Virus record (IMG/VR): IMGVR_UViG_2778261227_000014
From: a virus
Taxonomy: Duplodnaviria; Heunggongvirae; Uroviricota; Caudoviricetes
Reading direction: 5' to 3' (one strand)
DNA: 35,370 bases
Position 1 is the stretch's first letter. Every line of letters begins with the position of its first letter. Positions 742 through 26,820 of the stretch are shown here, piece by piece. A program made the translations under genes and the position numbers. The notes beneath the pieces are model-generated. The model searched no databases. It was not told where the DNA came from and saw nothing but the letters and a program-made list of their open reading frames with translations.

Positions 742-1140
742 TCAGATTCCCTCCCAAACTATATATCCTTTATCTCTTGCCCAACGAACAACTGTGTGAG
801 CTGTATATGTGGATGTGAAGCCGCAATAAGAACATGACACTTCATACCGGAAATTGTAGATGCTAATGGGGCCGTTATCCTTACGTATGGGAGTGACATA
901 TTCCCAATCTTTTGAACCATCATAATCATCAAGTTCATGATCAGTGCCGTGAACAACCGTATGTGGAACAAATAGATCTGGGCGTCCACACGAGAGACAA
1001 GAGGTTTTAGCACCTCTATCTGTGAGAAATTGAATAAATAATTTGGGCGTAATTTTCTGCAAGGCCTGCACATGCTCACGTTCCTTATCATTAAGAGGCC
1101 TGCCAAGATATAGAAAATCATCAAATTTAAGAGGCTTCAT
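742..1140 (-). CDS. Cys-rich (CxxC...CxxC) hypothetical protein, possible zinc-ribbon
   Basis: ORF with ATG at 1140 preceded by GGAG 9-12 nt upstream; the track start at 1155 is TTG. Overlaps the integrase 3' end by 14 nt. Contains CLSCG and CSYCG motifs. Confidence 0.5.
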   Translation of the reverse strand: MKPLKFDDFLYLGRPLNDKEREHVQALQKITPKLFIQFLTDRGAKTSCLSCGRPDLFVPHTVVHGTDHELDDYDGSKDWEYVTPIRKDNGPISIYNFRYEVSCSYCGFTSTYTAHTVVRWARDKGYIVWEGI

Positions 1141-2119
1141 ATACGGCTTCTCCAAGAGGATTAAATTTCACCGCATCCTGCAAGTAATCCGGCGCAAGAT
1201 GGGCATAAATCATCGTTGTCTGAATCTTTGCGTGCCCCAGAATTTTCTGGAGCGTCAGAATATTGCCGCCGTTCATCATGAAATGACTGGCGAAGGTGTG
1301 GCGCAGCGCATGAACAGCCTGGCCGTCAGGAACATCAGGTGCGACCGTTTTGATGACATCGCGAACCAATGAATAATCCAGCGTCGGAAACACCAGTTTC
1401 CCGCCCCGTTTTTTGATCTTTTCAAACAGGCTTTCAGAAATAGGAACGGTACGGTTTTTGCTGTTCTTCGTTTTTGAAAAAGTGATTCGACAATGAAGAA
1501 CGCGGCGCTGCTCCAGTGCCGCTACCTCGCCCCATCGCGCCCCGGTCGATAAAAGGATTTCGACAGCCAGCCGCTCATCGGGATTTTCAGCCAGTGCATC
1601 CAGCAACTGAACACATTCAGACTTACTCAGATATCCCATTTCGCGTTCGTTAACCTTCATTCCTTTCAGGCCTTGAATGGGGTTATCGTTAAGAAAATGG
1701 CCGGATGAGATGAGTGCGGTAAACATCGCGCTTAACGCCCCAATCTCTCGATTTATGGTGCTGGGCTGTATCCCCTGCTCTATCCTGGACACACGTAGCT
1801 CGGTGAGCATCGTTGTATTAAGTTTATGCACGCACGGGTCATCCATTGCCTCACTCAAGCGCAGCAATTTAAGGCGCGTGTTATGCCCTGACTTCATTAG
1901 CTGGCCGTGGTATTTCCACCACAAGTCAATAAGCACTGACAGCGGACGGCGATCAATGGAGTTTCCTTTCCACTCATTGTTATGCAGTTGTGCCAGCACC
2001 CACCGCTCATATAAAACTGCATCTGATTTCGTTTTAAATTTTTTTCGAATGCGTTTGCCTTTACGCCCCTCTGGGCGCATGTCAAGAAGATACCCTCCCG
2101 GAATTGATTTTATGCTCAT
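1127..2119 (-). CDS. int: Tyrosine recombinase, P2-type integrase
   Basis: 330 aa from ATG at 2119 (the track start at 2269 is an upstream in-frame extension). N-terminus MSIKSIPGGYLLDMRPEGRKGKRIRKKF resembles P2 Int; catalytic region contains ARWGE, HALRHTFASHF and LGHAKIQTTMIYAHL, the R...HxxR...Y signature of the family. Confidence 0.9.
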   Translation of the reverse strand: MSIKSIPGGYLLDMRPEGRKGKRIRKKFKTKSDAVLYERWVLAQLHNNEWKGNSIDRRPLSVLIDLWWKYHGQLMKSGHNTRLKLLRLSEAMDDPCVHKLNTTMLTELRVSRIEQGIQPSTINREIGALSAMFTALISSGHFLNDNPIQGLKGMKVNEREMGYLSKSECVQLLDALAENPDERLAVEILLSTGARWGEVAALEQRRVLHCRITFSKTKNSKNRTVPISESLFEKIKKRGGKLVFPTLDYSLVRDVIKTVAPDVPDGQAVHALRHTFASHFMMNGGNILTLQKILGHAKIQTTMIYAHLAPDYLQDAVKFNPLGEAVYEAS

Positions 2120-2168
2120 TCGTGAAACCCCAGCGTTACAAGACCACCATGCCCCCAGCGCTCCATGA

Positions 2169-2477
2169 TTAGCCGGGCTGTGTGCCAGTCTTGCGGGGTT
2201 TTTGAGAAGGCGATGTGCTTTTTGGCCCATCAGGGGAGAGAGACGGACTGATCTGCCCAGCAGCCTCATTTGTTTTTCCCGTCATAAGCCAATTCATGTA
2301 CTTAAAAAAGCGAGGGTGATTAACAATCTTGATAAGCACTTCGCCCCCTATGTTTTCAATCCGCCCCGTTTCATAACGACGCAAAGTGCCGATAGGCACA
2401 TCAATCAGGCCGCAAAATTCTTCGCGCGTTAAATCCTCTGATTCACGAATCACTCTAATTTTTTCACCGATAAGCAT
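2169..2477 (-). CDS. C: Immunity repressor, P2 C-like HTH protein
   Basis: About 102 aa from ATG at 2477. IRVIRESEDLTREEFCGLIDVPIGTLRRYETGR is a helix-turn-helix; overall pattern parallels P2 C. Divergent from the cox-like gene. Confidence 0.8.
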   Translation of the reverse strand: MLIGEKIRVIRESEDLTREEFCGLIDVPIGTLRRYETGRIENIGGEVLIKIVNHPRFFKYMNWLMTGKTNEAAGQISPSLSPDGPKSTSPSQKPRKTGTQPG

Positions 2478-2573
2478 TGACAGTGTTCCTATAAGTACAC
2501 TAAGCTTGCGCACAAGGTGTACTTATAAGTACACCAAGTCACAAACAACCACAGATAGCGCAGGTTATCACAC
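2478..2573. promoter_or_regulatory. Lysis/lysogeny switch region: divergent promoters and operator repeats
   Basis: Perfect 18-bp palindrome gtgtacttataagtacac at 2517-2534, and a direct copy of tataagtacac at 2490-2500 and 2524-2534, between the divergent C and cox-like genes. Confidence 0.6.
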
Positions 2574-2852
2574 ATGGCAAAAGTCCTGAACACACACGAA
2601 CAGGCAGACTTTGAGCGTTTAGCAGCGTTCTATCCCTACCGCGATGAGCATGGGTTACCAGTACTTGAAGAAAGCCTGAAAGATTACGCAAAGCGTACCA
2701 ACCAAGCTGTTAACACAGTGAAAAGACAGGCTGACAGAGGTTCAATTCCCATCAACCAAGATGAAAAGAACTCAAGACGCACAGTAAATCTCTTCGCTCT
2801 TTTCCTGAAAACAATCAGGAGCGCAGAAAAATACGTGCAGATGACAAAATAA
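2574..2852 (+). CDS. cox: Cox-like excisionase/early transcriptional regulator
   Basis: 92 aa; first gene transcribed away from the repressor. AKRTNQAVNTVKRQADRGSIPI parallels the HTH segment of P2 Cox (AKLIGKSTGAVRRMIDKGKLPVI, from memory). Confidence 0.6.
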   Translation: MAKVLNTHEQADFERLAAFYPYRDEHGLPVLEESLKDYAKRTNQAVNTVKRQADRGSIPINQDEKNSRRTVNLFALFLKTIRSAEKYVQMTK

Positions 2853-2866
2853 CGAGGTGTCATTTT

Positions 2867-3205
2867 ATGCTGAAGCAACGCCGTAATTTTCGTACCGGAA
2901 CAGAACGCCACGCTAACCGTTTCACTACCAGTGCATCACGCAGCAACATTCGCTACAGCCTGAGTGATACACACGCAACGCCGGATGGCTACCCAGTAAA
3001 ACAAATCGGCGAGCACGCCTGGCTGATTGAGAAAGCTGGAATCGTGATCCACAAATGCCCACGCAATCCGTTTACCGGAAACCGCATTTTTGCATTGAGC
3101 TGTGGCGACAATCAGTTCGGGCAGGATTTCACATTATACGAAGCACTTCGCACGGTTGATCGTCTGCTTCGCGGGCAAAGTTTTATTAAACAGGCTGATT
3201 TATAA
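2867..3205 (+). CDS. Hypothetical early protein
   Basis: 112-aa ORF with a GAGG upstream of the ATG, co-oriented in the early operon. Confidence 0.5.
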   Translation: MLKQRRNFRTGTERHANRFTTSASRSNIRYSLSDTHATPDGYPVKQIGEHAWLIEKAGIVIHKCPRNPFTGNRIFALSCGDNQFGQDFTLYEALRTVDRLLRGQSFIKQADL

Positions 3206-3215
3206 CAGGTGCTTT

Positions 3216-3530
3216 ATGACCAAAGACCATGCACAAGGTGTATTTATCCGTTTTATTGATTTTCGCGGTGAACTGTTATTACGTGCATCCGCTATTGACG
3301 GAGTGACTCCGGCGGGTAAAAACGGAGCCGACGAAGCCACTTACGTTTATCTGAACGGCACGCGCTGCTTGTGGAACTTCCGTACCAGACCGTACGAGAA
3401 ATCATTAGCGAAGCTGAAAAGGCACGCCATGTTAATGGCGATGAACCCTATATCGAAATTATTTGTATGGATTCAGAAGCTGAAATACAGAAAGCAGATT
3501 AAAGGGCGTTGTGATGGGCAAAGAATATAA
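3216..3530 (+). CDS. Hypothetical early protein
   Basis: ATG at 3216 with caggtg upstream; 104 aa; the track ORF 3102-3530 trimmed to the first ATG with an RBS. Confidence 0.45.
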   Translation: MTKDHAQGVFIRFIDFRGELLLRASAIDGVTPAGKNGADEATYVYLNGTRCLWNFRTRPYEKSLAKLKRHAMLMAMNPISKLFVWIQKLKYRKQIKGRCDGQRI

Positions 3531-3756
3531 AACTCTCATTAACAAAGCACTTGAGCGTTTTTATTTTCGCTTAAGTGCATCAGGCGCTCATGCTGAACGT
3601 GCGGCCCGTGACTCATTGACCAGAGCAATCCGAAGTCTGTATGACGTGGCTTTTTATGCTGATGATCTGGATGCACTTAACGAACTTTCCGAGCTGATCT
3701 GTGCCGCAGAATGCGGGGAACATATTGAACCGTATAAGCTGGGAAATATCGCATGA
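3514..3756 (+). CDS. Hypothetical early protein
   Basis: ORF in the early operon; GTG at 3511 and ATG at 3514 are both possible starts; overlaps the previous gene end. Confidence 0.45.
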   Translation: MGKEYKTLINKALERFYFRLSASGAHAERAARDSLTRAIRSLYDVAFYADDLDALNELSELICAAECGEHIEPYKLGNIA

Positions 3757-3890
3757 GTATATTTATCTCATGGCTTGTTCTGATTATTTCGGTGGTCTGC
3801 GCCATTGGGATTATGCGAATTATTAATTCAGTGAAAAAGATCGAGCGTTTTTCTCTGATGAATAACGATACAAATAAAGCATCAAATTAA
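3753..3890 (+). CDS. Small hydrophobic protein (45 aa), single predicted TM helix
   Basis: ATGA start/stop overlap with the upstream gene at 3753-3756; translation MSIFISWLVLIISVVCAIGIMRIINSVKK...; too short for the ORF track. Confidence 0.35.
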   Translation: MSIFISWLVLIISVVCAIGIMRIINSVKKIERFSLMNNDTNKASN

Positions 3891-3958
3891 ATAAGAAAAC
3901 GTGAAAACCATCCGTATTAACGGAGGTATTCGCACACGCAAATAACGGAGATACAAAA

Positions 3959-4369
3959 ATGCACGCAAAAGAAGAAGGTATCATCAGAGCACTGAAAGAA
4001 ATTTCAAAGACAGAAAACGAAGTAGCGAAAAAAGCCGTGGCAAATGCACATATGGACGTCGCAACCCACACACTGATAGTCGCAAGAGTCACGGCAGAAG
4101 CAGCCGAAATTATCGCAAAACAGGATGCTGAACTGGCGGTTCTCAGAACACAACCAGTCACCGGACTGGATTTGTCTAACACCGGACGCCTTATTTACAC
4201 AATTGGCTCGGAGCTACAGCGATACACCATTATCGCCGGATTACAGGATAAATACCTGATCACTCCTCACCCCATAAGGGAATCAGAAATTCTGACAAAT
4301 CTCCGCCTGATAGAACGCTCTCAAGCTGTATTCATTGATGACGCGCAACGTGCCGTATTTAACGCATAG
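3959..4369 (+). CDS. Hypothetical early protein
   Basis: 136-aa ORF, GGAG 8 nt upstream of the ATG. Confidence 0.55.
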   Translation: MHAKEEGIIRALKEISKTENEVAKKAVANAHMDVATHTLIVARVTAEAAEIIAKQDAELAVLRTQPVTGLDLSNTGRLIYTIGSELQRYTIIAGLQDKYLITPHPIRESEILTNLRLIERSQAVFIDDAQRAVFNA

Positions 4370-4392
4370 GGTTACTGGACAAAGGGGGCGCA

Positions 4393-4596
4393 ATGGCAAT
4401 TAAGCATTTTCCCGTCGTTCGCTTTACCTCCAGAGGGCGCGAATACGAGGTCGACGAACGCCTGATTACCACTATCGACAAACATCGTTCGGAAAAGGAT
4501 GCACACCACATCTACCTCACTGACGGCACTTACTTCTGCGCCACCAACGTGGCGCGAGTAAATCTTATCCGACAGGTACAGGAGCCACGCAGATGA
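4393..4596 (+). CDS. Hypothetical early protein
   Basis: 67-aa ORF, AAGGGGG upstream of the ATG, stop overlaps the next start (ATGA). Confidence 0.5.
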   Translation: MAIKHFPVVRFTSRGREYEVDERLITTIDKHRSEKDAHHIYLTDGTYFCATNVARVNLIRQVQEPRR

Positions 4597-4859
4597 CCAT
4601 TCTGGACTACATCGCTACTCATCCGGGGTGTAGCGGCGGAGAGATCGCCGCAGCACTGAATACCCCAACCACAGCCATTAATGCTGAGTTACGCCGACTT
4701 TGGCGCGGCGGCTTAGTCATCAGAACAAACCGCAGCACAGGTGGTCGCGCTCGCAAAACAGGAGGCCAGGCTTCTTACCACGTAAACCCGATGCCGTTCG
4801 GGTGTAGCAATCCACTTACTCACATGTTTAACCGGCTACTGAAGGAAGCCAGAGCATGA
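4593..4859 (+). CDS. Putative winged-helix DNA-binding protein
   Basis: 88 aa; LDYIATHPGCSGGEIAAALNTPTTAINAELRRLWRGGLV looks like a winged HTH; translationally coupled to the upstream gene. Confidence 0.5.
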   Translation: MTILDYIATHPGCSGGEIAAALNTPTTAINAELRRLWRGGLVIRTNRSTGGRARKTGGQASYHVNPMPFGCSNPLTHMFNRLLKEARA

Positions 4860-4924
4860 GCACCATCAACCACCAGGAATTACATCCATCATCATTTCCG
4901 AGATGCCAACAGGCTCTTCACAGT

Positions 4925-5392
4925 TCAGAAACTGCACAACCAGCAAATTAACCTTTCGGAGTAACGCAAATGTTCGCTGGCAGACAACCCAACAGATGCA
5001 CTCGCTTTGTTTTTTGCGGGCCTGACAAACGCTTTCATGTATGCGCTGTTCGTTTCTTCCAGATGCAGAATGCGCTCAATGAGGCGTTCAGTACTCATGA
5101 AATCCCTTTGCGTAATCAGACGAAGGTAGCTCTGTTTCTGCCAGCACGCCCATTCGGCAACGCACTCAAACTTACTGCAAAACCAGGAAAAAACAAAAAA
5201 CGCCAGCCCGCAAAGACTCATCAGGACGGGGAAACCTACGAGAAGAAAGGAGAATACCGCAGCAATCAGTGCCCCGGCGCGCAACACGGCAGCGGCTTTA
5301 TTGCTGAGTATGAAAACCATCTCTTCCAGCCAGTAGCTGTACCACAGATGGAAAAAAATCTTCTTGTCTGCTTGCTCCATAGCAACAGGCAT
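4925..5392 (-). CDS. Membrane protein (2 predicted TM helices plus C-terminal soluble domain), function unknown; antisense to the early operon
   Basis: ATG at 5392 with GGAGG 5-6 nt upstream on the - strand (the track start at 5398 is TTG). Hydrophobic stretches AAVLRAGALIAAVFSFLLVGFPVLM and LCGLAFFVFSWF. The overlapping + ORF 4970-6085 has non-protein-like composition. Confidence 0.55.
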   Translation of the reverse strand: MPVAMEQADKKIFFHLWYSYWLEEMVFILSNKAAAVLRAGALIAAVFSFLLVGFPVLMSLCGLAFFVFSWFCSKFECVAEWACWQKQSYLRLITQRDFMSTERLIERILHLEETNSAYMKAFVRPAKNKASASVGLSASEHLRYSERLICWLCSF

Positions 5393-5449
5393 AAACAACC
5401 TCCATTGTTAATAAACGCCGCTATCCTTCGGCGCATTCCATTTTTGCGC

Positions 5450-5485
5450 CGCGATTATACATACTTCAGCACGCAACACAAAAAC
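5450..5485 (-). promoter_or_regulatory. Candidate sigma70 promoter for the antisense membrane-protein gene
   Basis: On the - strand TTGCGT ... TGTATATAAT (perfect TATAAT, + coordinates 5454-5459, with upstream TG); spacing to the -35-like hexamer is short, so extended -10 usage is assumed. Confidence 0.35.
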
Positions 5486-5547
5486 CGCTTGCCAGCGCTC
5501 GTTGAGTCGGGTTACATTTCCGCTGCACCTCATAAAACGGGTGCCGG

Positions 5548-5733
5548 GATTCTCAACCCGCTGACTACACACGCGCACAACCGCGCCAGCGGTTTTTTTG
5601 TGCGTACTGTATTGCCACGTCTTATTCGCGTCAGAATTATGGCGGGGCGTACGGGGCCGACTTCGGTCGGGCCGGGATCGTGTGTAGCCGGTGTTGAGAA
5701 CCCCGTACGTCTCGCCACCCCGAGATTCTCAAC
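5548..5733. repeat. Three copies of the GATTCTCAAC motif (two direct, one inverted) around a GC-rich stem-loop region
   Basis: gattctcaac at 5548-5557 and 5724-5733; inverted copy gttgagaa at 5693-5700; cgtacgggg (5648-5656) complementary to ccccgtacg (5701-5709), enclosing the ccgac-ttcg-gtcgg hairpin at 5657-5670. Confidence 0.5.
5578..5599 (+). terminator. Candidate intrinsic terminator inside the early region
   Basis: aaccgc-gcca-gcggtt hairpin followed by T7 (ggtttttttg) on the + strand. Confidence 0.45.
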
Positions 5734-5778
5734 TCTGGATGGTGAGTTTTCAAAACTTACTATACACGAGGCCACGTC

Positions 5779-6009
5779 ATGGCAAACCGCAAGCAACAGC
5801 GCGCCCGCGCTGAGCGTATTCACATCCGCAGCGAAATCAACCGCAGACTTTTTCGCGCAACACGCGTCGCGCAAATCATGCACATCAATATGTTGCATGA
5901 GCGCAGCCACGCACTATCAAACATTTATTCCGCCTCTGTTTTCAGCTATCTGGCGGATGATCTGCACGAGCTTCAACAGCTCATCCAGCAGCAAAACAAA
6001 CTCCATTAA
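5779..6009 (+). CDS. Small basic protein, hypothetical
   Basis: 76-aa ORF, GAGG upstream of the ATG; N-terminus MANRKQQRARAERIHIRSEINRRLF is arginine-rich. Confidence 0.5.
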   Translation: MANRKQQRARAERIHIRSEINRRLFRATRVAQIMHINMLHERSHALSNIYSASVFSYLADDLHELQQLIQQQNKLH

Positions 6010-6081
6010 TTCCTGTTCCGGGCCTTTCCTGCACCTTGCGGCGGGAGGCCTTCGCACATCTGTAACAAGAGGATTGCCGCA

Positions 6082-6447
6082 ATGATTCTCGCCAACGACT
6101 TTCTTGAATACCTGCTCAACACAGAGCGTGATCTTGCCGCTCGCGTGCGTGATCGTTATGACATGTACCTGAAATCCCTGCCTGTACTGCAGCTCGCTGA
6201 CGGAAAGATTGTTATTGATGGTCGCTACATGATTGACAGCCACGAGGGAAATTACAGGCTTTACCGCATTGAAGGTGGCACCCCGTCCGTTATTGGCATT
6301 TACCAGCGCCCATCCTCTGCAATCGTCGATGTGATTGCCGACAGCATCCGCATCACACATCGCCATGCCGACACAGAAGACACCGTGCTGGAAATTCAGC
6401 GGCTGGCTACAGTCTGCCGCGACACCCTGAATGGCATGACGAAGTAA
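6082..6447 (+). CDS. Hypothetical protein immediately upstream of the replication gene
   Basis: 121-aa ORF, AAGAGGA 7 nt upstream of the ATG; stop 6 nt before the A start. Confidence 0.55.
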   Translation: MILANDFLEYLLNTERDLAARVRDRYDMYLKSLPVLQLADGKIVIDGRYMIDSHEGNYRLYRIEGGTPSVIGIYQRPSSAIVDVIADSIRITHRHADTEDTVLEIQRLATVCRDTLNGMTK

Positions 6448-6453: not shown

Positions 6454-9276
6454 ATGACGGCAGAGTACATCAGGGACTGGCAACAACCGCGCCACGCAGT
6501 GGGGTGTGAAGGAACGGGGATCCCCGCTCCTGAATCCGCGCTTTCCTCCTGGCTGGATGCCTACCGGGCTGAGAACGAGCGCCGCCAGGAAATGGCTGAT
6601 GCGGCGTTCTCCGCCACACCGCTGGGCAACCTGATTAATAAAAGCCTGGACGCACAGGAAAAACAGGACAAAACCATCACACTGGCAGGAGACGCCAGAA
6701 AACAGGCACGCGGCGCGGTGGATGAAGCCATGGCCTCGCTGCGCCTGCTGCCGTCCTATCTGCGCGATCCGCTTATTCGCCACCTCTCCTTCCTGCGCAA
6801 AAAACAGGAAGCCGATCGCCGGAAAGGCAAAAAGAGCTGGCAGGCGGAACGCTATGCACGCGGACCCCTGCGCAAAATATTCGAACGTCTGGATAGCACT
6901 GACGGACGCTGGCTGACACCGGGTTATCGCTCCCTTGCCGGACGCGAACGCCTGGACGATTTGCTTTACCTGCCGCAGCTCAACAAACACCAGATACAGA
7001 CGCTGGCCACCATGACGGCGGCGATGTTCAGCAGCACCTTCGAAAAACTCTGCGATGGCTTTGGCGCGACCGATGGCGAGCTGACCATGGATGTAACCCT
7101 GAAGGCGTATCAGATGCTGGCCCGCATGGCGTTACACCTGCACGCCATGCCTCCACATTATGACGCACTGACGACAGACAAAGACCGGAGGAACGAACCG
7201 GACACGGAGCTGCTGCCGGGCGCAATCCTTCGCCTGACCTGTGCGGAATGGTGGAAACGCAAACTGTGGCTGTTACGTTGCGAGTGGAGAGAAGAACAAC
7301 TCCGCGCCGCCTGTCTGGTTTCCAGAAAAACATCACCCTATCTGAGCCAGGACGCGTTAAGCGAGTTTCGCGCACAGCGCGAGAAAACACGCGATTTCCT
7401 GAAAAGTTTCATGCTGGAAAATGAAGACGGGTTCACGATTGATCTCGAGACAGTGTATTACGCGGGAGTAAGTAACCCGGTTCACCGTAAGGCAGAAATG
7501 ATGGCCACCATGAAGGGGCTGGAACTTCTGGCCGAAGCCCGTGGCGACAAAGCGGTGTTTCTGACTGTCACCTGCCCGTCAAAATACCACGCCACAACAG
7601 AGAACGGTCATCCGAATCCCAAATGGAACGGGGCCACCATGCGCGACTCCAGCGATTACCTGGTTAACACGTTTTTTGCAGCGGTCCGCAAGAAACTGAA
7701 CCGCAACGGCCTGCGCTGGTATGGCATCCGCACGGTGGAGCCTCACCATGACGGCACCGTGCACTGGCATATGATGGTCTTTGCTCATCCGGAAGAAATC
7801 GACACCATTGTGTCCCACACCCGCGATATTGCCATTCAGGAAGATCGTCACGAGCTGGGTGATGATATTACCCCACGCTTTAAGGCAGAGTACGTCGACG
7901 GTTCGAAAGGTACGCCGACCAGCTACATCGCCACCTACATCGGAAAGAACCTGGACAGCCGCGCCGTGGGTGGCATTGACCCGAAAACAAGCAAGCCACG
8001 CGTTGATCACGAAACCGGAAAATCAATGGCCGAGAGCGTGGAACGCGCCATCGGCTGGGCGCGCCTTCACCGCGTCCGCCAGTTCCAGTTCTTTGGTATC
8101 CCCTCCCGTCAGGTATGGCGTGAACTCCGCCGCCTTGCCAGTCAGATGGCCCGCAACCCGGAAGGTCCACAACGTCTGGAAAATGACGCAATGGATGCGG
8201 TACTCGCTGCCGCTGATGCCGGGTGTTTTGCCACCTACATTGAGAAACAGGGTGGCGTACTTGTTCCACGCAAGGATTACCTGATTCGCACCGCCTACGA
8301 CCTCGCAGAAGAGCTGAACGATTACGGCGAGCAAAGCGTACAGATTTACGGGATCTGGTCGCCACAAATCGGGGAATCTTCCCGCGTGTGCACGCACCCG
8401 GATAACTGGAAGCTGGTAAGACGTAAACCGGAAGCGGAAGACAGCGCCCGCGAAAATGGTTTTGACCTTCAGGGCGGCCCTGCCGCCCCTTGGACTCGTG
8501 GCAATAACTGTCCCCGTGTACAGGAAACGGACAACAACGGGACAGAACAGCCGGAAGAACGGCCAGCACCGTGGCCGCAGCTCCCTGACGGCGTTGAAGT
8601 GAACGAATGGATGCGCTCACTGAAACGGCACGAACGCCGGGCGCTGATGCGTTCGCTTCGTGACAAACAGGCAAAAAACAGCAGTGATGAAATGCAGAGC
8701 TGGACACAGAGCCGCAAACAGCAGCGGCCTTTGCCTGATAACCACGAATTACTCGCTAAAGAATGGCGGGAGTCTGCTGAATCTCTCGGCCTGCATATCG
8801 GTGAACAGCAGATGCAGCACCTGTTACGGGGCGGCAGTCTGTACGTTGACGGCAGCATCATTGCACCGCAGGGATTTGAAATTGTACGCAAACCGGATAC
8901 CCGACCGGACAGCCGGATCACGCAGCTCTGGCAGCGCCTGAGCCGTAACCACGGCGTAAGCAGCACGGAGATCCGCCATAACCCGGTCGCCAGCTATCTG
9001 GAACAGCTGGGGGCATCAGACCCCGAAGCCGCCGCACGCCTGGCATCCACACTTCAGCAAGACCAGAACACCATGAAAACACCCGTTACCGTGCTTTCTG
9101 ACATGCTGCGCGCCATCCGCGACGCAGAGCACGCACAGAGAATCAGTGAAACCACTGAACGCGCCCGCCGCAAAGCAGACCTGCTGCGGGGTGGCCTGAC
9201 CATTGGAAACAAAAAACAGACAGAAACGGGATTCACAAATCCCGTAAATGAGCAAAAAACGCGCCGCGATATATGA
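6454..9276 (+). CDS. A: Rolling-circle replication initiator, P2 gpA-like endonuclease
   Basis: 940 aa. HUH-type metal motif GTVHWHMMVFAH and paired active-site tyrosines YIATYIGKN (Y-x3-Y), as in P2 A / phiX174 A-type initiators; position after the early genes. Overlapping - strand ORFs (7880-8707 and others) are treated as high-GC artefacts. Confidence 0.85.
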   Translation: MTAEYIRDWQQPRHAVGCEGTGIPAPESALSSWLDAYRAENERRQEMADAAFSATPLGNLINKSLDAQEKQDKTITLAGDARKQARGAVDEAMASLRLLPSYLRDPLIRHLSFLRKKQEADRRKGKKSWQAERYARGPLRKIFERLDSTDGRWLTPGYRSLAGRERLDDLLYLPQLNKHQIQTLATMTAAMFSSTFEKLCDGFGATDGELTMDVTLKAYQMLARMALHLHAMPPHYDALTTDKDRRNEPDTELLPGAILRLTCAEWWKRKLWLLRCEWREEQLRAACLVSRKTSPYLSQDALSEFRAQREKTRDFLKSFMLENEDGFTIDLETVYYAGVSNPVHRKAEMMATMKGLELLAEARGDKAVFLTVTCPSKYHATTENGHPNPKWNGATMRDSSDYLVNTFFAAVRKKLNRNGLRWYGIRTVEPHHDGTVHWHMMVFAHPEEIDTIVSHTRDIAIQEDRHELGDDITPRFKAEYVDGSKGTPTSYIATYIGKNLDSRAVGGIDPKTSKPRVDHETGKSMAESVERAIGWARLHRVRQFQFFGIPSRQVWRELRRLASQMARNPEGPQRLENDAMDAVLAAADAGCFATYIEKQGGVLVPRKDYLIRTAYDLAEELNDYGEQSVQIYGIWSPQIGESSRVCTHPDNWKLVRRKPEAEDSARENGFDLQGGPAAPWTRGNNCPRVQETDNNGTEQPEERPAPWPQLPDGVEVNEWMRSLKRHERRALMRSLRDKQAKNSSDEMQSWTQSRKQQRPLPDNHELLAKEWRESAESLGLHIGEQQMQHLLRGGSLYVDGSIIAPQGFEIVRKPDTRPDSRITQLWQRLSRNHGVSSTEIRHNPVASYLEQLGASDPEAAARLASTLQQDQNTMKTPVTVLSDMLRAIRDAEHAQRISETTERARRKADLLRGGLTIGNKKQTETGFTNPVNEQKTRRDI

Positions 9277-9352: not shown

Positions 9353-10312
9353 ATGAAAATTTGTATCGATGACGGCTCCACCAACATCAAGCTGGCATGG
9401 ACTGAGAACGGCGAACGCCGCAACGCCATCAGCCCGAACAGCTTCAAGTCGGAATGGTCTGCGCCGTTCGGTGGCACGCAGCCCGCGAACTACATGCTTG
9501 ATGGCGTGCGCTATGGTTTTGATCCGGTCAGCGATCGCTTTGTCCAGACGACCGACACGCAATACCAGTACAGCGATGTGAATGTCATTGCCATTCATCA
9601 CGCGCTGGTCAAATCAGGCATCACACCACAGGAAGTGGATGTGGTTGTCACCCTGCCACTGAGCGAATATTTCGACACAAACGCACAGCCGGACATGGCC
9701 AACATCAACCGCAAAAAAGCAAACGTCATGCGTCCGGTGGCGTACCAGAACGGAAAAGCATTCACTATCCGTAACGTACGGGTTATGCCTGAATCCATTC
9801 CGGCTGGTTTTAAAGCACTGGCTGACATGAGTCCGTTTGAATCCCTGCTGATTGTGGATTTAGGCGGAACCACGCTGGATGTGGCAAAGGTTCAGGGACA
9901 ACTGGCGGGTATCAGCCAGGTGTTTTGCGATCCACACGTAGGCGTTTCCCTGATGGCCGATGCCGTACTGTCGGTGATGGCCACTAACGGTATGCGCACC
10001 AGTCACCACATCGCCAATACCATTATCGAACATCGCCATGATGAAGCCTGGCTGCGCCAGCACATCCACAATGACGCGCATTACGCCAGCCTGATGGCGG
10101 TTATTCGTGAAAAGGAAGAAACACTGAAACAACGCGTGATCCGCGCGCTGGCGGTTTTTTCGGGTTACGGGCGGGTGATGGTTGTCGGTGGCGGGGCGGA
10201 GATTGTGGCACCCGCTATCCGCGAAGCCTGCGGAGTTAATGCGACTTTCATCGCGGACGGGGTGCCACAATTTGCTCTGGTTAATGGGCTGTACGCAATG
10301 AACAAGGAGTAA
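9353..10312 (+). CDS. parM: ParM/StbA-like actin-type segregation ATPase
   Basis: 319 aa; N-terminal MKICIDDGSTNIKLAW closely matches plasmid R1 ParM (MLVFIDDGSTNIKLQW, from memory); further shared blocks YSDVNVIAIHHAL, VMPESIPAG, LLIVDLGGTTLD, GVSL, FSGY, VMVVGGGAEI, LVNGLY. AGGA RBS 8 nt upstream. Confidence 0.8.
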   Translation: MKICIDDGSTNIKLAWTENGERRNAISPNSFKSEWSAPFGGTQPANYMLDGVRYGFDPVSDRFVQTTDTQYQYSDVNVIAIHHALVKSGITPQEVDVVVTLPLSEYFDTNAQPDMANINRKKANVMRPVAYQNGKAFTIRNVRVMPESIPAGFKALADMSPFESLLIVDLGGTTLDVAKVQGQLAGISQVFCDPHVGVSLMADAVLSVMATNGMRTSHHIANTIIEHRHDEAWLRQHIHNDAHYASLMAVIREKEETLKQRVIRALAVFSGYGRVMVVGGGAEIVAPAIREACGVNATFIADGVPQFALVNGLYAMNKE

Positions 10313-10316: not shown

Positions 10317-10628
10317 ATGACGACACCAACCAGAAGAATAAGTTTCTATCTGAAGCCAGCTGCCGTCAAGAACGAAGGAGAAGCATGCGCCTGGCTGGAC
10401 AGCCTTACACCAGAAGCCCGCAAAAGCGGCCAACGCGTGGCTTTTCTGGCCGGGCTGGCACTTCTGAAGACGAATCCGGCAGAGGCTTACCGACTGGCCG
10501 CATGGGCTGATGATGAGATGTTACCTGTGACACAAATCAGCTCAAAAAAGTTTGAAGCACAGTCTGCACCAGTGGCTAAGATAACCAGCCAGATGGCTGG
10601 GAATATCCGGGCGTTATTTCCTGAGTAA
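10317..10628 (+). CDS. parR: ParR/StbB-like DNA-binding adaptor protein
   Basis: 103 aa directly downstream of the parM-like gene; ISFYLKP, AFLAGLALLKTNPAEAY and IRALFPE parallel R1 ParR (IAFKLNP, AALTAGLALYRQDP, LRSLFPKE, from memory); AGGAG RBS. Confidence 0.65.
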   Translation: MTTPTRRISFYLKPAAVKNEGEACAWLDSLTPEARKSGQRVAFLAGLALLKTNPAEAYRLAAWADDEMLPVTQISSKKFEAQSAPVAKITSQMAGNIRALFPE

Positions 10629-10642
10629 AAGCATCTGCGCGA

Positions 10643-10684
10643 AAAATGCTCACGTTTATAGAGAAAATGCTCACGTTTATAGAG
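10643..10684. repeat. Perfect tandem duplication of a 21-bp unit just downstream of the parR-like gene
   Basis: aaaatgctcacgtttatagag at 10643-10663 repeated at 10664-10684. Confidence 0.7.
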
Positions 10685-10777
10685 ACAGTATCATTCCATT
10701 TGGCACACTTACTTCAATAATCGATCTGTTAAACAAATAGATTGTCTATTATCTATCGATTAAAACGATCAATTATC

Positions 10778-10806
10778 TTGACAGTAATGTGCCTTTTTGT
10801 AAGATC
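10778..10806 (+). promoter_or_regulatory. Candidate sigma70 promoter
   Basis: Perfect TTGACA at 10778-10783, 16-17 bp spacer, TAAGAT at 10800-10805; points toward the 11014 gene. Confidence 0.4.
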
Positions 10807-10856
10807 GTTCGCATTGTGAGCGACAAGATAATTGCGCGGCATTGTCCATGCAAAAC

Positions 10857-10882
10857 GCCCCAATAGCAGCAACTATTGGGGC
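10857..10882 (+). other. 10-bp-stem hairpin (possible 5'UTR structure or binding site)
   Basis: gccccaatag-cagcaa-ctattggggc, perfect inverted repeat. Confidence 0.4.
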
Positions 10883-11013
10883 GTAAAACTCGGTCGGACT
10901 CACTTAACCTGATATGCGTGCCTTCCGAAGTAAATCAAAATGTGCGTCGTATATTTTATTGCTTACACGCACCTCTGTAAAGGCACGCATATTTTTCCTA
11001 TGAGGTAAATAAA

Positions 11014-11283
11014 GTGCGGGCTAAAACAGGTATTTGCAAGAACCCTCATCGTTATAATCCAACATTTCTGTCTCTCCCTGAATATCAAGGACAAGAAGGT
11101 CGGCACAAATGCGCTGCCTGTGCTTTTGAGCTAGGCATAAAAGATGCGCTTGAAGGACGCGCTATGGCTCAGAATGATTTAGTTTTAGCTAACATTCCGT
11201 TTAGCCAGGCTGGAACTGTAAGGCACAGAGATGCCTATGAAGCATATGTTCGTGGTTGGCGATTAATACACAGCAACAATTGA
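11014..11283 (+). CDS. Small hypothetical protein with Cys/His cluster
   Basis: 89 aa from GTG at 11014 with GAGG 8 nt upstream; CKNPHRYNP...HKCAACAF; flanked by its own promoter-like region and a downstream terminator. Confidence 0.45.
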   Translation: MRAKTGICKNPHRYNPTFLSLPEYQGQEGRHKCAACAFELGIKDALEGRAMAQNDLVLANIPFSQAGTVRHRDAYEAYVRGWRLIHSNN

Positions 11284-11291
11284 TACTTTTG

Positions 11292-11316
11292 AAGCGCCGA
11301 TAAGGCGCTTTTTTTG
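11292..11316 (+). terminator. Rho-independent terminator
   Basis: agcgcc-gataa-ggcgct hairpin followed by T7 directly after the 11283 stop. Confidence 0.7.
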
Positions 11317-11707
11317 TTTGCACGATAGTGCACAAGTTTGCACAATTTTTTTGAACGACTTTTTGTACTTCCGGCCCGCGTGGTGGCTGGATCCGTCAAG
11401 GATCCGTACGTGCACAAAAAAACGCGTTTTTTCTGCGCGCAGGTGACGGGGGAACAGCCCGCGTTTCAGGGGGTAAATAGCATTCCCTGAACGATGTCGC
11501 AGAGATACAACAGAATGGCTGTATTTCTCACGCTGAGCGTGAAAAAGACGTGAGGGCTTTTGATTTAGGTAAGGCCGTCAAAATCGCACTGAGACGGCGA
11601 GAACATGCAGTCAACGCGGTGGGATTGCGTAAGAGTCTGACTGTCGATGATGGCAATCAGCAGAAAAGCATCGTGAAATTATCTGACTGATACAGGAGCT
11701 GGAGAGT

Positions 11708-11732
11708 CGGGGCATAAATTTTTTATGCCCCG
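11708..11732. other. Hairpin adjacent to the portal gene stop
   Basis: cggggcata-aattttt-tatgccccg at 11708-11732, 27 bp beyond the Q stop; no clean T-run on either side. Confidence 0.35.
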
Positions 11733-11758
11733 GCGAAGCAGCAGACAAGCGAAGCGCG

Positions 11759-12805
11759 TCAGGATGTGGGCTGGGTGTCTAACAGTGCGTAAGGGTTAAA
11801 GCGGATCACCTCTTCGCCAAGCCAGTCATTGATGTGCTTCATGGCCTCCATGACAGGCATCAGCTCGTTAATTGCGTAAACCCGCGCGGCCTTCTCCACA
11901 TCGCCAAACGCACTTTTTTCGCCCGGCATCGCCCCCATCAGTTGCGGCGGAACGCGGTGCGCAGCCAGCACATCATCACGGGATGCCGCCTTAACATTCA
12001 TGAACTCATCCTTTGCGGTGATCTGCTGGAACGGCAAAATTTGCACCCCCTCTTTGCCCCCGTTGGGCGCATGAATGAGCACGTTTTTAAATGCACCACC
12101 ACCACGCGCACCCTGTAGCGTTTCCTTCAGGGAGTCCATGCTTTCGCGGTTTACCTGCGCTGCACCGATGTAGATGATGCACCCGGCGTGGGAGCCGTTG
12201 TCGTAATACAGTTTTCTGAACATGTCCGCCGAATGAGACAGGCTGGCCGAGAGTAATGCGCCGAGATATTCCGGCATGCCGTAGATTTCCTGGTTAATGT
12301 CAGGATTCATCAGGTGGCACACTTTGCCAGGGCGAAACTGAAACGCGTCCTTGCCATCCTGCACATACCACCATGATTCAAGATCGCTTCCGCGTCGCAT
12401 GTATTTCGCCAGGGCGTGCCGTAATTTAAGTGGTTCGCCGAGCATATTGCTTCGAAGCTCAAGGAATGCGTTACCGAACACAAACCAGTCCAGCGCCAGC
12501 GCCGAGAAATCCTGCCGGGAAAGCAGCGGATGCGGAATATAGCAGCCGAGCAATACATTACGCTTAAAGTAAAGCGCAGACTGATGCCAGGACGTTTGCC
12601 GGGCAGCTCTTGCCAGACCGTACCAGTCCACCGGGGTTTCATACCACCGACCGTTATCAGCACAGTACATATTGTCCAGCAGGTCATGCCCGGTCAGGCG
12701 GTAAGGACCATCAAATGTGAATGCACTGAGCGACGATTCTTTCCTGAGCGCATCAGCGAGATCAATGCGTGAACTCATGCGCACTTTTTTATTTTTTCTG
12801 CTCAT
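11759..12805 (-). CDS. Q: Portal protein, P2 gpQ-like
   Basis: 348 aa, ATG at 12805 overlapping the P stop (ATGA); size and position match P2 Q, leftward and adjacent to terminase. Confidence 0.85.
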   Translation of the reverse strand: MSRKNKKVRMSSRIDLADALRKESSLSAFTFDGPYRLTGHDLLDNMYCADNGRWYETPVDWYGLARAARQTSWHQSALYFKRNVLLGCYIPHPLLSRQDFSALALDWFVFGNAFLELRSNMLGEPLKLRHALAKYMRRGSDLESWWYVQDGKDAFQFRPGKVCHLMNPDINQEIYGMPEYLGALLSASLSHSADMFRKLYYDNGSHAGCIIYIGAAQVNRESMDSLKETLQGARGGGAFKNVLIHAPNGGKEGVQILPFQQITAKDEFMNVKAASRDDVLAAHRVPPQLMGAMPGEKSAFGDVEKAARVYAINELMPVMEAMKHINDWLGEEVIRFNPYALLDTQPTS

Positions 12806-22968: not shown

Positions 22969-24948
22969 ATGAGTACCACAACACGAAAATTTAAAACCAT
23001 TATCACTGATACTGGTGCCAAAAAATTAGCTCAGGCTGCCGCGCCAGATGGTAATCCTGTCCGCCTGACTCATATGGCCGTGGGCGACGGTGGCGGCACG
23101 TTGCCCACACCAGACAGTAAGCAGACCCATCTGGTGCATGAGGTGTGGCGACATACTGTTAATCGCGTCATCCTGGACGCAACACATCAGAACCGCATTA
23201 TTGCAGAGCTGGTTATCCCTCCTGAAACGGGCGGGTTCTGGATCCGGGAAATTGGTGTATTTGATGAGCACGGCGATTTGATCGCGGTGGGCAATACTGC
23301 CGAAAGTTACAAGCCAACCGTTGCCGAAGGATCCGGACGTGCACAAACATTTCGCACCATTCTGACCGTATCCAGCACTGCCACCGTGGCGCTTACCGTG
23401 GATAACACCATGGTTATGGCCACAGTGGATTACGTGAATGACAAACTGAAAGAGCATGAACAGTCACGACGTCACCCGGACGCCTCGCTGACCGCAAAAG
23501 GCTTTGTTCAACTCAGTAGCGCCACCAACAGCACGTCTGAAGCACTGGCCGCAACGCCGAAAGCGGTCAAGGCAGCCTATGACCTTGCTAACGGGAAATA
23601 TACCGCTCAGGATGCCACGACGGCACGAAAAGGAATAGTCCAGCTCAGTAGCGCCACCAACAGCACGTCTGAAGCACTGGCCGCAACACCGAAAGCGGTA
23701 AAGACAGCATATGACCTTGCTAACGGGAAATATACCGCTCAAGACGCTACGACAGCACAAAAAGGGATTGTCCAGCTAAGCAGCGCGACTAACAGCACAT
23801 CTGAAACGCTTGCCGCGACACCGAAAGCAGTGAAAGCAGCTAATGACAATGCGAATGGTCGGGTACCTTCTGCCCGTAAGGTGAATGGTAAGGCGCTTTC
23901 AGCGGATATAACACTGACACCGAAAGATATTGGTACGCTTAACTCAACAACTATGTCATTCAGCGGTGGTGCTGGTTGGTTCAAATTAGCAACGGTAACC
24001 ATGCCGCAGGCGAGTTCTGTTGTTTCAATTACGTTGATTGGTGGGGCTGGATATAACGTCGGTTCACCTCAACAGGCAGGTATATCTGAACTTGTTTTGC
24101 GTGCAGGTGATGGTAATCCGAAGGGGATTACTGGTGCTTTATGGCAGCGCACATCGGCAGGGTTTACAAATTTTGCCTGGGTCAATACATCTGGTGATAC
24201 TTACGATATTTACGTTGCAATCGGAAATTATGCGACTGGTGTAAATATTCAATGGGATTATACCAGTAATGCCAGCGTAACGATTCATACATCACCAGCA
24301 TATTCTGCTAATAAGCCGGAAGGGTTAACGGACGGTACAGTTTATTCACTCTATACGCCATCAGAGCAGTTTTATCCGCCTGGCGCACCAATCCCGTGGC
24401 CATCGGATACCGTTCCGTCTGGTTATGCCCTGATGCAGGGGCAGACTTTTGACAAATCTGCCTACCCGAAACTTGCAGTCGCTTATCCGTCAGGCGTGAT
24501 CCCTGATATGCGTGGCTGGACGATTAAGGGCAAGCCCGCCAGTGGTCGTGCCGTATTGTCTCAGGAACAGGACGGCATTAAATCGCACACCCACAGCGCC
24601 AGCGCATCCAGTACGGATTTGGGGACGAAAACCACATCGTCGTTTGATTACGGAACTAAATCCACAAATAACACCGGAGCACATACACACAACTTTGCTT
24701 ACAACAATACTTCAGCATACGCAGAAACTCCCGGTACCGGTGGTGGAATGCATGCAACTAACACAAGCAAGACAGCAAGTAATCGCGTATTAAGCGCAGG
24801 AGCTCATACTCACACAGTAGCAATAGGTGCGCATACACATACGCTCGCTATTGGTTCGCACACACACACCATTACCATTGCCGCTTATGGCAACGCGGAA
24901 AACACCGTAAAAAACATCGCATTTAACTATATTGTGAGGCTTGCATAA
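22969..24948 (+). CDS. H: Tail fibre protein, P2 gpH-like, with internal tandem repeats and C-terminal His-Thr repeats
   Basis: 659 aa; conserved N-terminal anchor region; three tandem copies of about 40 aa; C-terminal [31 protein letters not shown]. Confidence 0.85.
23497..23856 (+). repeat. About 3 x 120-bp tandem repeat inside the tail fibre gene
   Basis: Near-identical units encoding (K/R)G(F/I)[12 protein letters not shown](A/T)LAATPKAVK(A/T)[17 protein letters not shown]. Confidence 0.8.
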
Positions 24949-25547
24949 TGGCATTCAGAATGAGTGAACAACCACGAACCATAAAAATTTATAATCTGCT
25001 GGTCGGAACCAATGAATTTATTGGTGAAGGTGATGCATACATTCCACCTCATACAGGTCTACCTGCAAATAGTACTGATATTGCTCCGCCAGATATTCCA
25101 GCTGGCTTCGTGGCTATTTTCAACAGTGATGAGGCATCGTGGCATCTTGTTGAAGACCATCGGGGTAAAACAGTTTATGACGTGGCATCAGGGGACGCGT
25201 TATTTATTTCTGAACTCGGCTCATTACCGGAAAATGTCACTTGGTTATCCCCGGAAGGGGAGTTTCAGAAGTGGAACGGCACAACGTGGGTGAAAGATGC
25301 AGAAGCAGAAAAAGTGTTCCGGATACGGGAGGCGGAAGAAACAAAAAACAGCCTCATGCAGGTAGCCAGTGAGCATATTTCGCCACTTCAAGATGCCGTA
25401 GATTTGAATATTGCAACAGAGGAAGAAACATCGTTACTGGTGGCATGGAAGAAGTATCGAGTGCTGCTGAACCGTGTTGATACATCAAGAGCACCGGATA
25501 TTGAGTGGCCAGCTTCCCCAGTGGAATCAAGGAGTAAACAAGCATAA
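24948..25547 (+). CDS. G: Tail fibre assembly chaperone, P2 gpG-like
   Basis: 199 aa immediately after H (TAATG overlap). Confidence 0.8.
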
Positions 25548-25641
25548 AGGCTTTCATTTCAAACCATTGTAGTACAGTTTTTTGTATAGTACCCTGCTCA
25601 TTTCGGATGACATGTGTGATTTGGAATTTCAGGGTACCATT

Positions 25642-26820
25642 ATGAATGTTATTTCATCATTAAAACAGCTTAACAGACAGCGAAATATTAAAACAAAAAA
25701 GATAAAGACGAAGGCCAGACTGGCATTTCTAAAAATGCGATACAGAAGGAAAACATCATTACAGCCGAATAGTTATAAAACAGTGTGCATTTTCATGCAC
25801 ATGCAAGCCATTGGTGACGGCATCGTTACCTCAGGGTTTATTAAACAACTTCAAAAATCCGGTATGGTGGTATATGTGATAGCACCTTCAAGAGTATCAT
25901 TCCTCTTTACTGATATTGTTGGCGTGGATGCCTTTATATCTTACGAGAAAAATAAATTTAACGAACTAAAAGCAAAGATAAAAAAACTGAATGTAGATCT
26001 TGTTGTTGACTTCTCAAATTTTGATAACACAGCGATAACCAGATTGCAAACACTACATTTACTTAGACCTAAACACTCTATCTGTTTTAATCATCCTGCC
26101 GTAACTATTTTTGATACAAATATAATCGATAATCGTTCCATTCACACATCTGAAAGAATGAAAAAAGTTTTATCTTTACTAAAGATAAAAAATAATAATT
26201 ATGCTGCAGCACTTAATTTTGACAACAAAACATATGAACCAGCAAATATTGTTGCAAATGAATTCAGGAAGAAAAACAAAAAATTAGTTATATTTAACCC
26301 TTATGGCTCTCAGAATAGCAGAACCTTATCTGATGAACAGATAAACAAAGTACTAGCTTACCTTAATAACCTTAAGGGATATCACACAATAGTTTTTAAT
26401 ATGGGAAAACAGATTAATCACAATGGATTGGATAATGTGTCTCTATCTCCATTTTCTGATGCCGGATGTTCATTTGCATTGGTTCGCCATGCTGATTTTG
26501 TTATAACTGTAGATACTGCCATTGTACATTTAGCCAGTGCATTAAACATTAGACAATACTGTATATATAATAACAGAATGCATGAAGGAAAATTCGAAAA
26601 TAATATTGTGTGGGGGCCAAACAGCAAATTAGCGACTCAACTCACCACATCCGAACATCTAAGGTCTGAAGGGGGCGACGATATGCATAAATTCGACATA
26701 ATGATCTTAATTAATGCTATCAAACAAGATTTGACAAACGATATACCGAATTACCACTCGGATTTAGGTTGTAAAAATAGATCCAGAAACCCAGAATTAG
26801 AAAGTAGCAATTCTTTATAA
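25642..26820 (+). CDS. Glycosyltransferase family 9-like (heptosyltransferase-like) moron; start uncertain (ATG 25612 or 25642; the track start 25582 is TTG)
   Basis: Strongly AT-rich versus flanking phage genes; N-terminal VCIFMHMQAIGDGIVTSGFIKQL resembles the GT9 ILVIRLxAIGDxxxTxP box, and C-terminal FVITVDTAIVHLASALNIRQY resembles the GT9 NDSGPMHLAAAL box. Sits at the P2 Z/fun position. Confidence 0.55.
   Translation: MNVISSLKQLNRQRNIKTKKIKTKARLAFLKMRYRRKTSLQPNSYKTVCIFMHMQAIGDGIVTSGFIKQLQKSGMVVYVIAPSRVSFLFTDIVGVDAFISYEKNKFNELKAKIKKLNVDLVVDFSNFDNTAITRLQTLHLLRPKHSICFNHPAVTIFDTNIIDNRSIHTSERMKKVLSLLKIKNNNYAAALNFDNKTYEPANIVANEFRKKNKKLVIFNPYGSQNSRTLSDEQINKVLAYLNNLKGYHTIVFNMGKQINHNGLDNVSLSPFSDAGCSFALVRHADFVITVDTAIVHLASALNIRQYCIYNNRMHEGKFENNIVWGPNSKLATQLTTSEHLRSEGGDDMHKFDIMILINAIKQDLTNDIPNYHSDLGCKNRSRNPELESSNSL

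Follow-up and report, generated by a model that had tools for sequence, protein, structure and literature searches.

HK97 gp15, T4 Imm, and P22 SieA are small inner-membrane proteins that block genome injection. RexB of phage lambda is an inner-membrane protein that crosses the membrane as four helices; it depends on the sensor RexA, and its gene is transcribed together with cI. SLATT proteins usually accompany an enzyme that makes nucleotides or complementary DNA (cDNA) and belongs to the SMODS, SLOG, TIR, or reverse-transcriptase type. They are predicted to be pore-forming effectors, and phage defense by DRT10 requires one of them (PMC12632851; bioRxiv 10.64898/2026.04.29.721553). Here, we compare with these systems a gene for a 155–amino acid (aa) protein located in a 35,370-nucleotide (nt) stretch of viral DNA, IMG/VR record IMGVR_UViG_2778261227_000014, hereafter called the window. 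The window is a P2/186-like prophage of the Peduoviridae whose nearest group is Xuanwuvirus P88, and a stretch identical to it is present in Escherichia coli strain 100181. The gene is an accessory gene (moron) of this P88/186-like prophage and a reasonable candidate for prophage-encoded phage defense. Even chances are given to the most likely reading, in which it encodes a lysogeny-expressed, SLATT-like membrane effector that acts in abortive infection or exclusion.

A preliminary description of this DNA had claimed a 155-aa open reading frame (ORF) opposite to rightward early genes, preceded by a GGAGG ribosome binding site (RBS). Both are present as described, the neighbors being plus-strand P2/186-like early genes. 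The Prokaryotic Genome Annotation Pipeline (PGAP) calls the same frame in E. coli strain 100181 as the hypothetical protein WP_074568453.1; an alternative in-frame TTG at 5398 would give a protein of 157 aa. The gene and its immediate signals are as follows:

4925-5392, minus strand: gene for the 155-aa protein (ATG at 5392-5390; stop codon included in the range; from translation)
5399-5403, minus strand: Shine-Dalgarno sequence GGAGG, 6 nt before the ATG, kept in the alleles of loci L002, L005, and L006
5454-5459, minus strand: predicted −10 hexamer TATAAT, with an implied transcription start near 5447 and a 5′ untranslated region (5′UTR) of ~55 nt

Comparison of homologous sequences indicates that the 4925-5392 ORF is a genuine gene under purifying selection. 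Its length is no evidence because 97 ORFs in the window reach at least 90 aa. The ratio of nonsynonymous to synonymous substitution rates (dN/dS) was 0.13 to 0.20, with dS up to 0.41, among the six pairs formed by four intact E. coli alleles; the exception, at 0.40, was one pair of near-identical alleles separated by 10 differences. All 14 homologous loci keep the sense frame open, so that conservation of the frame in relatives, on which the preliminary description had made its reading depend, is borne out; antisense frames are broken in many of these loci.

An exhaustive HMMER search yielded 11 representative clusters of related proteins, and profile searches extended these to ~45 related clusters, all 150 to 160 aa long and all from Enterobacterales. 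Family proteins in other genera were recovered at E values of 1e-35 to 1e-70, and a scan of genome contigs with a sub-alignment profile gave 6 loci. The family is found in Escherichia, Salmonella, Enterobacter, Klebsiella, Serratia, Yersinia, and Pectobacterium, as well as in Brenneria, Sodalis, Pantoea, Cedecea, Kosakonia, Edwardsiella, and Phytobacter. The motifs YSYWLE, NRR, EEFDS, and NPARNRA are conserved in the family alignment (A2, 38 sequences). The protein matches phrog_6315 (7e-29), a PHROGs family without an assigned function, and a literature search on protein accessions found nothing.

The two transmembrane helices assigned to the protein earlier are supported by hydropathy and by structure prediction. 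Residues 33 to 75 form a single hydrophobic stretch, a 43-residue hairpin interrupted at G53-F-P55, with the helices predicted as follows:

5234-5296, minus strand: predicted transmembrane helix 1, approximately residues 33-53 (Kyte-Doolittle 19-residue windows >2.0; within modeled helix H2-50)
5168-5227, minus strand: predicted transmembrane helix 2, approximately residues 56-75 (hydropathy; modeled helix H55-94), connected to helix 1 through the G53-F-P55 turn

An AlphaFold model built on the 38-sequence family alignment is all-helical [mean predicted local distance difference test score (pLDDT) of 88.2 and predicted template modeling score (pTM) of 0.78]; it consists of a long hairpin of helices H2-50 and H55-94, followed by three short C-terminal helices. 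As modeled, the protein would reside in the inner membrane: a long helix at the N terminus leads into a tight hairpin of two helices, a helical tail of 80 residues follows, and both ends are probably cytoplasmic. Two predicted transmembrane helices with flanking soluble helical regions in a protein within the range of ~150 to 250 aa correspond to the layout of SLATT proteins.

The resemblance to SLATT proteins (NF033632 SLATT_4, NF033634 SLATT_1, and PF18186 SLATT_4) extends to size (~155 aa versus a 154-position profile) and to the order of parts, in which two transmembrane helices are preceded by an N-terminal helix and followed by a helical C-terminal region; both groups are carried on mobile elements involved in conflict. 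When 38 family members were scanned against NCBIfam, SLATT_4 was matched by 22 (best E value of 1.4e-5) and SLATT_1 by 11, all below threshold. The SLATT_4 alignments are co-linear, with residues 26-100 corresponding to profile positions 27-106 of 154. Reversed sequences served as a control for hydrophobic composition: none of 10 reversed proteins matched a SLATT profile, versus 9 of the same 10 read forward. The specific, order-dependent similarity to SLATT is thus seen at the level of the family but not with the window protein by itself. Pfam SLATT_4 gave one match in the family, at an E value of 0.11. A Foldseek search against the viral predicted structures of BFVD returned SLATT-labeled entries at ranks 2, 3, 4, 7, 13, 14, and 18 (7 of the top 18), with probabilities up to 0.96 but E values of only 0.1 to 1. 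A search of Protein Data Bank (PDB) sequences with the family profile produced only noise (best match, ribosomal protein L20 at E 0.57), and when the 38-sequence profile was run in a word-indexed search (E values up to 10), family members alone and no SLATT proteins were recovered. The remote homology search proposed as a check in the preliminary description thus gives sub-threshold SLATT matches at the level of the family, while the window protein has no Pfam family match. We conclude that the family is probably a distant relative of SLATT proteins and not a demonstrable member. It also differs from them in its setting: the gene stands alone in E. coli and is elsewhere paired with a 27- to 64-aa acidic ORF, an enzyme partner is missing, and the family is confined to prophages of Enterobacterales. 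The SLATT-like architecture suggests permeabilization of the membrane, as in abortive infection.

We also considered a class II (two–transmembrane helix) holin and rejected it. Holin profiles gave single weak matches only, with one member each (Phage_holin_2_4 at 0.041 and Phage_holin_2_3 at 0.1); the gene opposes its neighbors and is far from lysis genes, and Mu-like loci that carry a relative have a separate holin and lysozyme.

The accessory nature of the gene is seen from the boundaries of the DNA that carries it, which were defined by blastn breakpoints:

4877-5475: swappable segment of 599 bp containing the gene, its RBS, and its −10 hexamer

Similarity to phage vB_EcoM-569R5 stops at 4876 and similarity to P88 at 4883, resuming at 5476. 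These phages carry instead 298 or 1378 bp of plus-strand genes coding for an ead/Ea22-like protein, a membrane protein, and a lipoprotein. One and the same plus-strand 99-aa gene occupies the junction in all three E. coli prophages sampled further down the ranking and is the usual occupant in most related prophages. Only ~37 of 5426 complete E. coli genomes carry the two–transmembrane helix gene, the window-type allele in ~12 and a second allele, 38% identical in protein sequence, in 25. The second allele occupies the same site beside the isrK RNA gene (L007, 1969-2616, minus strand) in prophages with a different early region that includes an exonuclease, a ParE-like gene, Dam, and DUF4406. 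PGAP lengthens this allele to 215 aa from an upstream GTG, across the antisense of isrK; its start is likely the ATG of MSDKLPSDYE, which gives 154 aa. Frameshifted or truncated alleles also occur (P0003, P0004, P0005, and P0007).

Relatives from other genera have been inserted at unrelated places, always antisense to their neighbors and, in P2-like prophages, always on the strand of the repressor and integrase genes. In P2/186-like prophages of Serratia, Enterobacter, and Yersinia, a relative interrupts the run of early genes, such as at the junction of cII (CP76) and fil; it opposes these genes and shares the strand of repressor and integrase. The cassette of Pectobacterium versatile (L054, 3500-4800) lies between cox and a near-consensus early promoter (TTGACA-18-TAAATT) that abuts the repressor gene, so that the early transcript crosses the whole cassette in antisense before it reaches the first gene; this cassette has a terminator of its own with a 14-bp stem. 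A Klebsiella prophage remnant has kept a relative beside its repressor and integrase genes. Salmonella and Edwardsiella relatives are found in Mu-like late regions, opposite to all neighbors, between the DUF1804 gene region and a gene of 520 to 550 aa that precedes the Mu portal gene and probably codes for the large terminase. Judging from these positions, the family has been inserted independently in P2-like early and Mu-like late regions, and such repeated insertion into unrelated operons, always opposed to them, fits a self-contained accessory transcription unit. The earlier assignment of the gene to morons of the exclusion, abortive-infection, or toxin type is accordingly upheld by the replaceable segment, the independent antisense insertions, the frameshifted alleles, and the SLATT resemblance; a terminator and an atypical base composition, which might also mark a moron, were not found.

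Outside the E. coli clade, the family is part of a fuller cassette. In most genera, an acidic ORF of 27 to 64 aa precedes the two–transmembrane helix gene by 6 to 15 nt on the same strand and contains the motif FHV(L/P)(H/R)KP(A/E)P(P/S), e.g., FHVLHKPAPP. It has no Pfam match, and several versions contain APP or PPE stalling-type motifs. The small ORF is apparently translationally coupled to the gene that follows, and three roles are conceivable for its product: partner protein, antidote, or regulatory leader peptide. It is preceded in turn by a leader of ~95 to 125 nt with three helices. Their positions in representative loci are:

L008 4899-4994, L024 ~5911-5994, L015 4812-4988, and L018 4787-4981: small acidic ORF
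L014 4760-4878, L015 4704-4814, L024 5797-5913, L041 5793-5907, and others: leader RNA (alignment A4, model R1)

Helix 1 of the leader, GCCGGG/CCCGGC, is almost invariant. Helix 2 overlaps helix 1, covaries (CCATG/CATGG, CCCTG/CAGGG, and CCACG/CGTGG), and is followed by a T-run; in helix 3, six of eight pairs show double changes. Overall, 93.5% of alignment cells pair, versus 34 to 44% when the partners are slid, and none of 500 shuffles reached the observed value. The two overlapping helices are mutually exclusive or pseudoknotted, and the leader could act as an attenuator or as a small RNA (sRNA). No Rfam family matches it. A covariance model built on 13 loci finds the leader in further loci of Edwardsiella, Pectobacterium, Enterobacter, Serratia, and a Yersinia phage. 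A relation of the leader to isrK, both of which contain GTGCCGGGATT, was rejected: the leaders gave no sub-threshold match to Rfam isrK, and the leader model finds nothing on either strand of the window. The arrangement recalls DRT10 (UG17), in which a SLATT-type gene follows a structured noncoding RNA (PMC12632851), since a covarying leader lies upstream of the gene in relatives outside E. coli. Unlike DRT10, the cassette has no reverse transcriptase, its leader is not the DRT10 noncoding RNA, and the window copy has no leader at all. The window copy is thus a stripped-down solo version of the cassette.

The proposed expression of the gene depends on its position among the following features:

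1127-2269, minus strand: integrase gene
2169-2513, minus strand: helix-turn-helix (HTH) repressor gene
4593-4859, plus strand: MarR-like early gene, convergent with the 155-aa ORF
5489-5518, plus strand: predicted isrK promoter (promoter scan)
5525-5599, plus strand: isrK sRNA (61.8 bits)
5635-5722, plus strand: C4/CI-type antisense RNA (76.8 bits)
5779-6009, plus strand: gene for a 76-aa "derepression protein" (PF25738)
6082-6447, plus strand: 121-aa ORF between the derepression gene and gene A
6454-9276, plus strand: replication endonuclease gene A

The gene had been placed inside the early operon. It is indeed antisense to early genes, but the term is imprecise, as the gene sits at the junction of the left early genes and a separate isrK-C4-derepression-gene A module. 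An own-strand TATAAT promoter had also been claimed. The hexamer is there, and four alleles with 6 to 10% divergence in DNA sequence share TATAAT, GGAGG, and ATG (alignment A5), with TATAAT standing 62 to 67 nt before the ATG; the fifth, very diverged allele (L007) reads TAGAAT. The accompanying −35-like element, TTGTGT (5476-5481, minus strand; spacer of 16 nt), has only three of six matches, and the promoter is absent from our consensus scan because the scan requires at least four of six matches per hexamer. This −35 element falls in the flank shared with prophages that do not have the gene; 7 bp separate it from the −35 of the isrK promoter, so that the two predicted promoters stand back-to-back. 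The 5′UTR of the window gene has no special structure, its fold being at the shuffled level (z = 0.02).

The mechanism that we propose has three steps. In the lysogen, the early promoter would be repressed and the gene would be transcribed from its own sigma-70 promoter, on the strand of the repressor and integrase genes; both the activity of this promoter and lysogen-specific expression are predictions. Expression from the repressed prophage has indirect support in the constant use of that strand and in the neighboring isrK promoter, which is active in lysogens of Salmonella (PMC7067206). The protein would enter the inner membrane and act against incoming phages, either through triggered opening or depolarization of the membrane, in the manner of a SLATT-like abortive-infection effector, or through interference with DNA entry; membrane action and an anti-phage role are likewise predicted. 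After induction, strong convergent early transcription would collide with the gene and silence it and, under this proposal, the phage's own lytic cycle would be spared. The likeness to RexB is one of concept: a prophage-encoded inner-membrane protein on the lysogenic strand that could depolarize the cell when another phage infects it. Unlike RexB, the protein is encoded behind a predicted promoter of its own and is not accompanied by a sensor gene, and no sequence or fold relationship to RexB was found.

Several observations weigh against this reading. The window protein has no SLATT match in Pfam or NCBIfam and no match to any PADLOC-DB v2 family at E values up to 0.1; its relatives score 12 to 25 bits, versus curated cut-offs of 55 for SLATT_4 and 41 for SLATT_1. 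A partner gene of the SMODS, SLOG, TIR, or reverse-transcriptase type was not found within 4 to 6 kb in the window or in the loci of seven genera. By covariance model and locus inspection, the E. coli clade, the window included, has neither the small acidic ORF nor the leader and so may differ from the ancestral cassette in how, or how well, it works. On the side of expression, the −35 element is weak (TTGTGT, 3/6), and TATAAT occurs in the window at chance frequency (9 seen versus 8.9 expected), so that the hexamer alone is no evidence and its weight comes from position and from conservation across alleles. No intrinsic terminator was found on the minus strand from 4925 to 4860, the convergent gene ending at 4859, and base composition is ordinary, with a guanine-cytosine (GC) content of 48.7% for the ORF versus 47.1% for the early genes at 2574-4859 (52.0% for the whole window).

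A wider reading takes the whole family as an undescribed, self-contained prophage defense cassette, composed of the leader RNA, the acidic FHVLHKPAPP protein, and a partner-less SLATT-like pore former. Such a cassette would insert antisense in P2-like and Mu-like operons, be on in lysogeny, and be silenced by lytic transcription, and the window copy would be a solo version re-wired beside the isrK promoter. We put this forward tentatively and consider it possible, with the balance of probability against it.

The main alternative to abortive infection is a passive block to DNA entry, in which the inner-membrane protein would exclude superinfecting phages, related or unrelated, by blocking injection of their genomes, with no pore and no killing. 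A small inner-membrane protein with two predicted helices, encoded on the strand that prophages use in lysogeny, would suit this function, and HK97 gp15, T4 Imm, and P22 SieA resemble it in being small inner-membrane proteins of phages or prophages, accessory, and encoded in their own transcription units among unrelated genes. The solo gene of the E. coli clade, with no visible sensor or partner, leans the same way, as do the two 38%-identical alleles, which occupy a single site with conserved flanks on either side, a pattern that an arms race against incoming phages would produce. However, no sequence similarity to known exclusion proteins was found in Pfam, PHROGs, or NCBIfam, and the protein differs from HK97 gp15, T4 Imm, and P22 SieA in its long, predicted cytoplasmic helical tail and its SLATT-like features. 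The sole recurrent similarity is to SLATT effectors, and the small ORF and structured leader outside E. coli suggest regulated rather than constitutive action. We therefore regard passive exclusion as unlikely.

The two-gene architecture seen in most lineages, with an acidic ORF directly upstream and apparently coupled, would also suit an addiction or toxin module in which a membrane toxin stabilizes the prophage or kills stressed cells and the small acidic protein is the ancestral antidote. SLATT-type proteins are predicted toxic membrane effectors (PMC12632851), the gene has been retained in the Klebsiella remnant beside the repressor, and frameshifted copies fit a costly gene. Yet in the E. 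coli clade, the putative toxin persists under purifying selection although the putative antidote is gone, and no similarity to known toxin-antitoxin families was found, which makes this explanation improbable.

Alternatively, the transcript could matter and the protein be secondary: a convergent, unterminated transcript would damp the MarR-like gene and the early operon, by interference or as antisense RNA, and so stabilize lysogeny. The lack of an intrinsic terminator between the stop codon at 4925 and the end of the convergent gene at 4859 is consistent with this, as are the 40-nt overlap of the L006 gene with the convergent DUF4406 gene and the Pectobacterium cassette, which points toward the early promoter from a position upstream of cox. 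We consider such a role quite improbable, since purifying selection acts on the protein sequence, which has been conserved between genera whose DNA has not; the cassette is also present in Mu-like late regions with no lysis-lysogeny switch nearby, most related prophages do without the gene, and the Pectobacterium copy has its own terminator. Last, the rarity of the gene (~37/5426 genomes), the several frameshifted alleles, the loss of the small ORF and leader in the E. coli clade, and the weak −35 could point to a silent or decaying passenger, intact but unexpressed or functionless in this host, which is highly improbable given a dN/dS of 0.13 to 0.20 between intact alleles at dS up to 0.41, the conserved RBS and −10, and two deeply diverged alleles maintained at the same site.

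The adjacent isrK-C4-derepression module is present in 1181 of 5426 complete E. coli genomes, and IsrK is highly transcribed in Salmonella lysogens (PMC7067206). The order RNA, derepression gene, ORF, and replication gene resembles that of the P4 immunity/left operon and of P1 c4-icd-ant, which suggests that replication genes of P88-like phages are controlled by an RNA-based immunity switch located upstream. A general functional tie of the 155-aa gene to isrK and C4 was rejected, as the Serratia, Enterobacter, and Yersinia relatives have neither isrK nor C4 and most isrK/C4 modules do not have the gene. Annotations of an "ash family protein" in relatives (L003, 2268-2885; L058, 2493-2756) overlie the isrK and C4 RNA genes and probably reflect conservation of RNA, not protein. 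A 371-aa plus-strand ORF (4970-6085) was likewise rejected as a true gene: it runs through the isrK and C4 RNA genes, and its frame, antisense to the 155-aa gene, has 6 to 9 stops in Mu-like loci. As it crosses two RNA genes and its frame is broken in homologs, it is a shadow ORF. In Yersinia phage vB_YenM_42.18 (L055, NC_070913.1), a deposited 221-aa hypothetical gene, gp08 (2803-3468), opposes a family member found by tblastn at 3001-3441; there, the real family gene was probably missed and a shadow ORF annotated instead.

Elsewhere in the window, the rightward early genes begin at 2574 and include a DUF4761 gene and a DUF4754 gene. Gene A is followed by:

9353-10312, plus strand: ParM/StbA-like actin ATPase gene
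10317-10628, plus strand: StbB-like plasmid stability protein gene, after which the structural genes follow
11759-12805, minus strand: 348-aa ORF, probably the portal gene (presumed identity)

Plasmid-partition cargo is found at a cos-proximal hotspot in about one-quarter of P2-like phages (PMC9122126), and the ParM/StbB pair of the window is such cargo. The 1.1 kb between the partition genes and the 348-aa ORF (10629-11758) contains no ORF of at least 90 aa, the longest being 89 aa (11014-11283), and is presumably the cos region. A strong Rfam match to the IS009 RNA (187.7 bits; 25291-25489, plus strand) lies inside or beside the ORF at 24948-25547, which is probably a gene of the tail-fibre region. 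After it, a 412-aa ORF (25582-26820, plus strand) has a weak match to glycosyltransferase family 9 (heptosyltransferase) and may be a conversion gene that modifies lipopolysaccharide (LPS).

Overall, the gene at 4925-5392 is a candidate partner-less, SLATT-like prophage moron, its function being predicted from architecture and context. Small membrane morons are common on prophages, and the finding is no surprise in kind. The family is annotated everywhere as hypothetical protein, with a wrong-strand call in at least one phage genome, and a name and a function would improve the annotation of prophages. Should the protein be a working membrane effector, SLATT-like two-helix pore formers would act without the enzyme partners that define every characterized SLATT system. 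If so, a compact one- or two-gene module would join the prophage-borne anti-phage genes, and its placement against lytic transcription would be a simple and general way to confine a dangerous gene to lysogeny.

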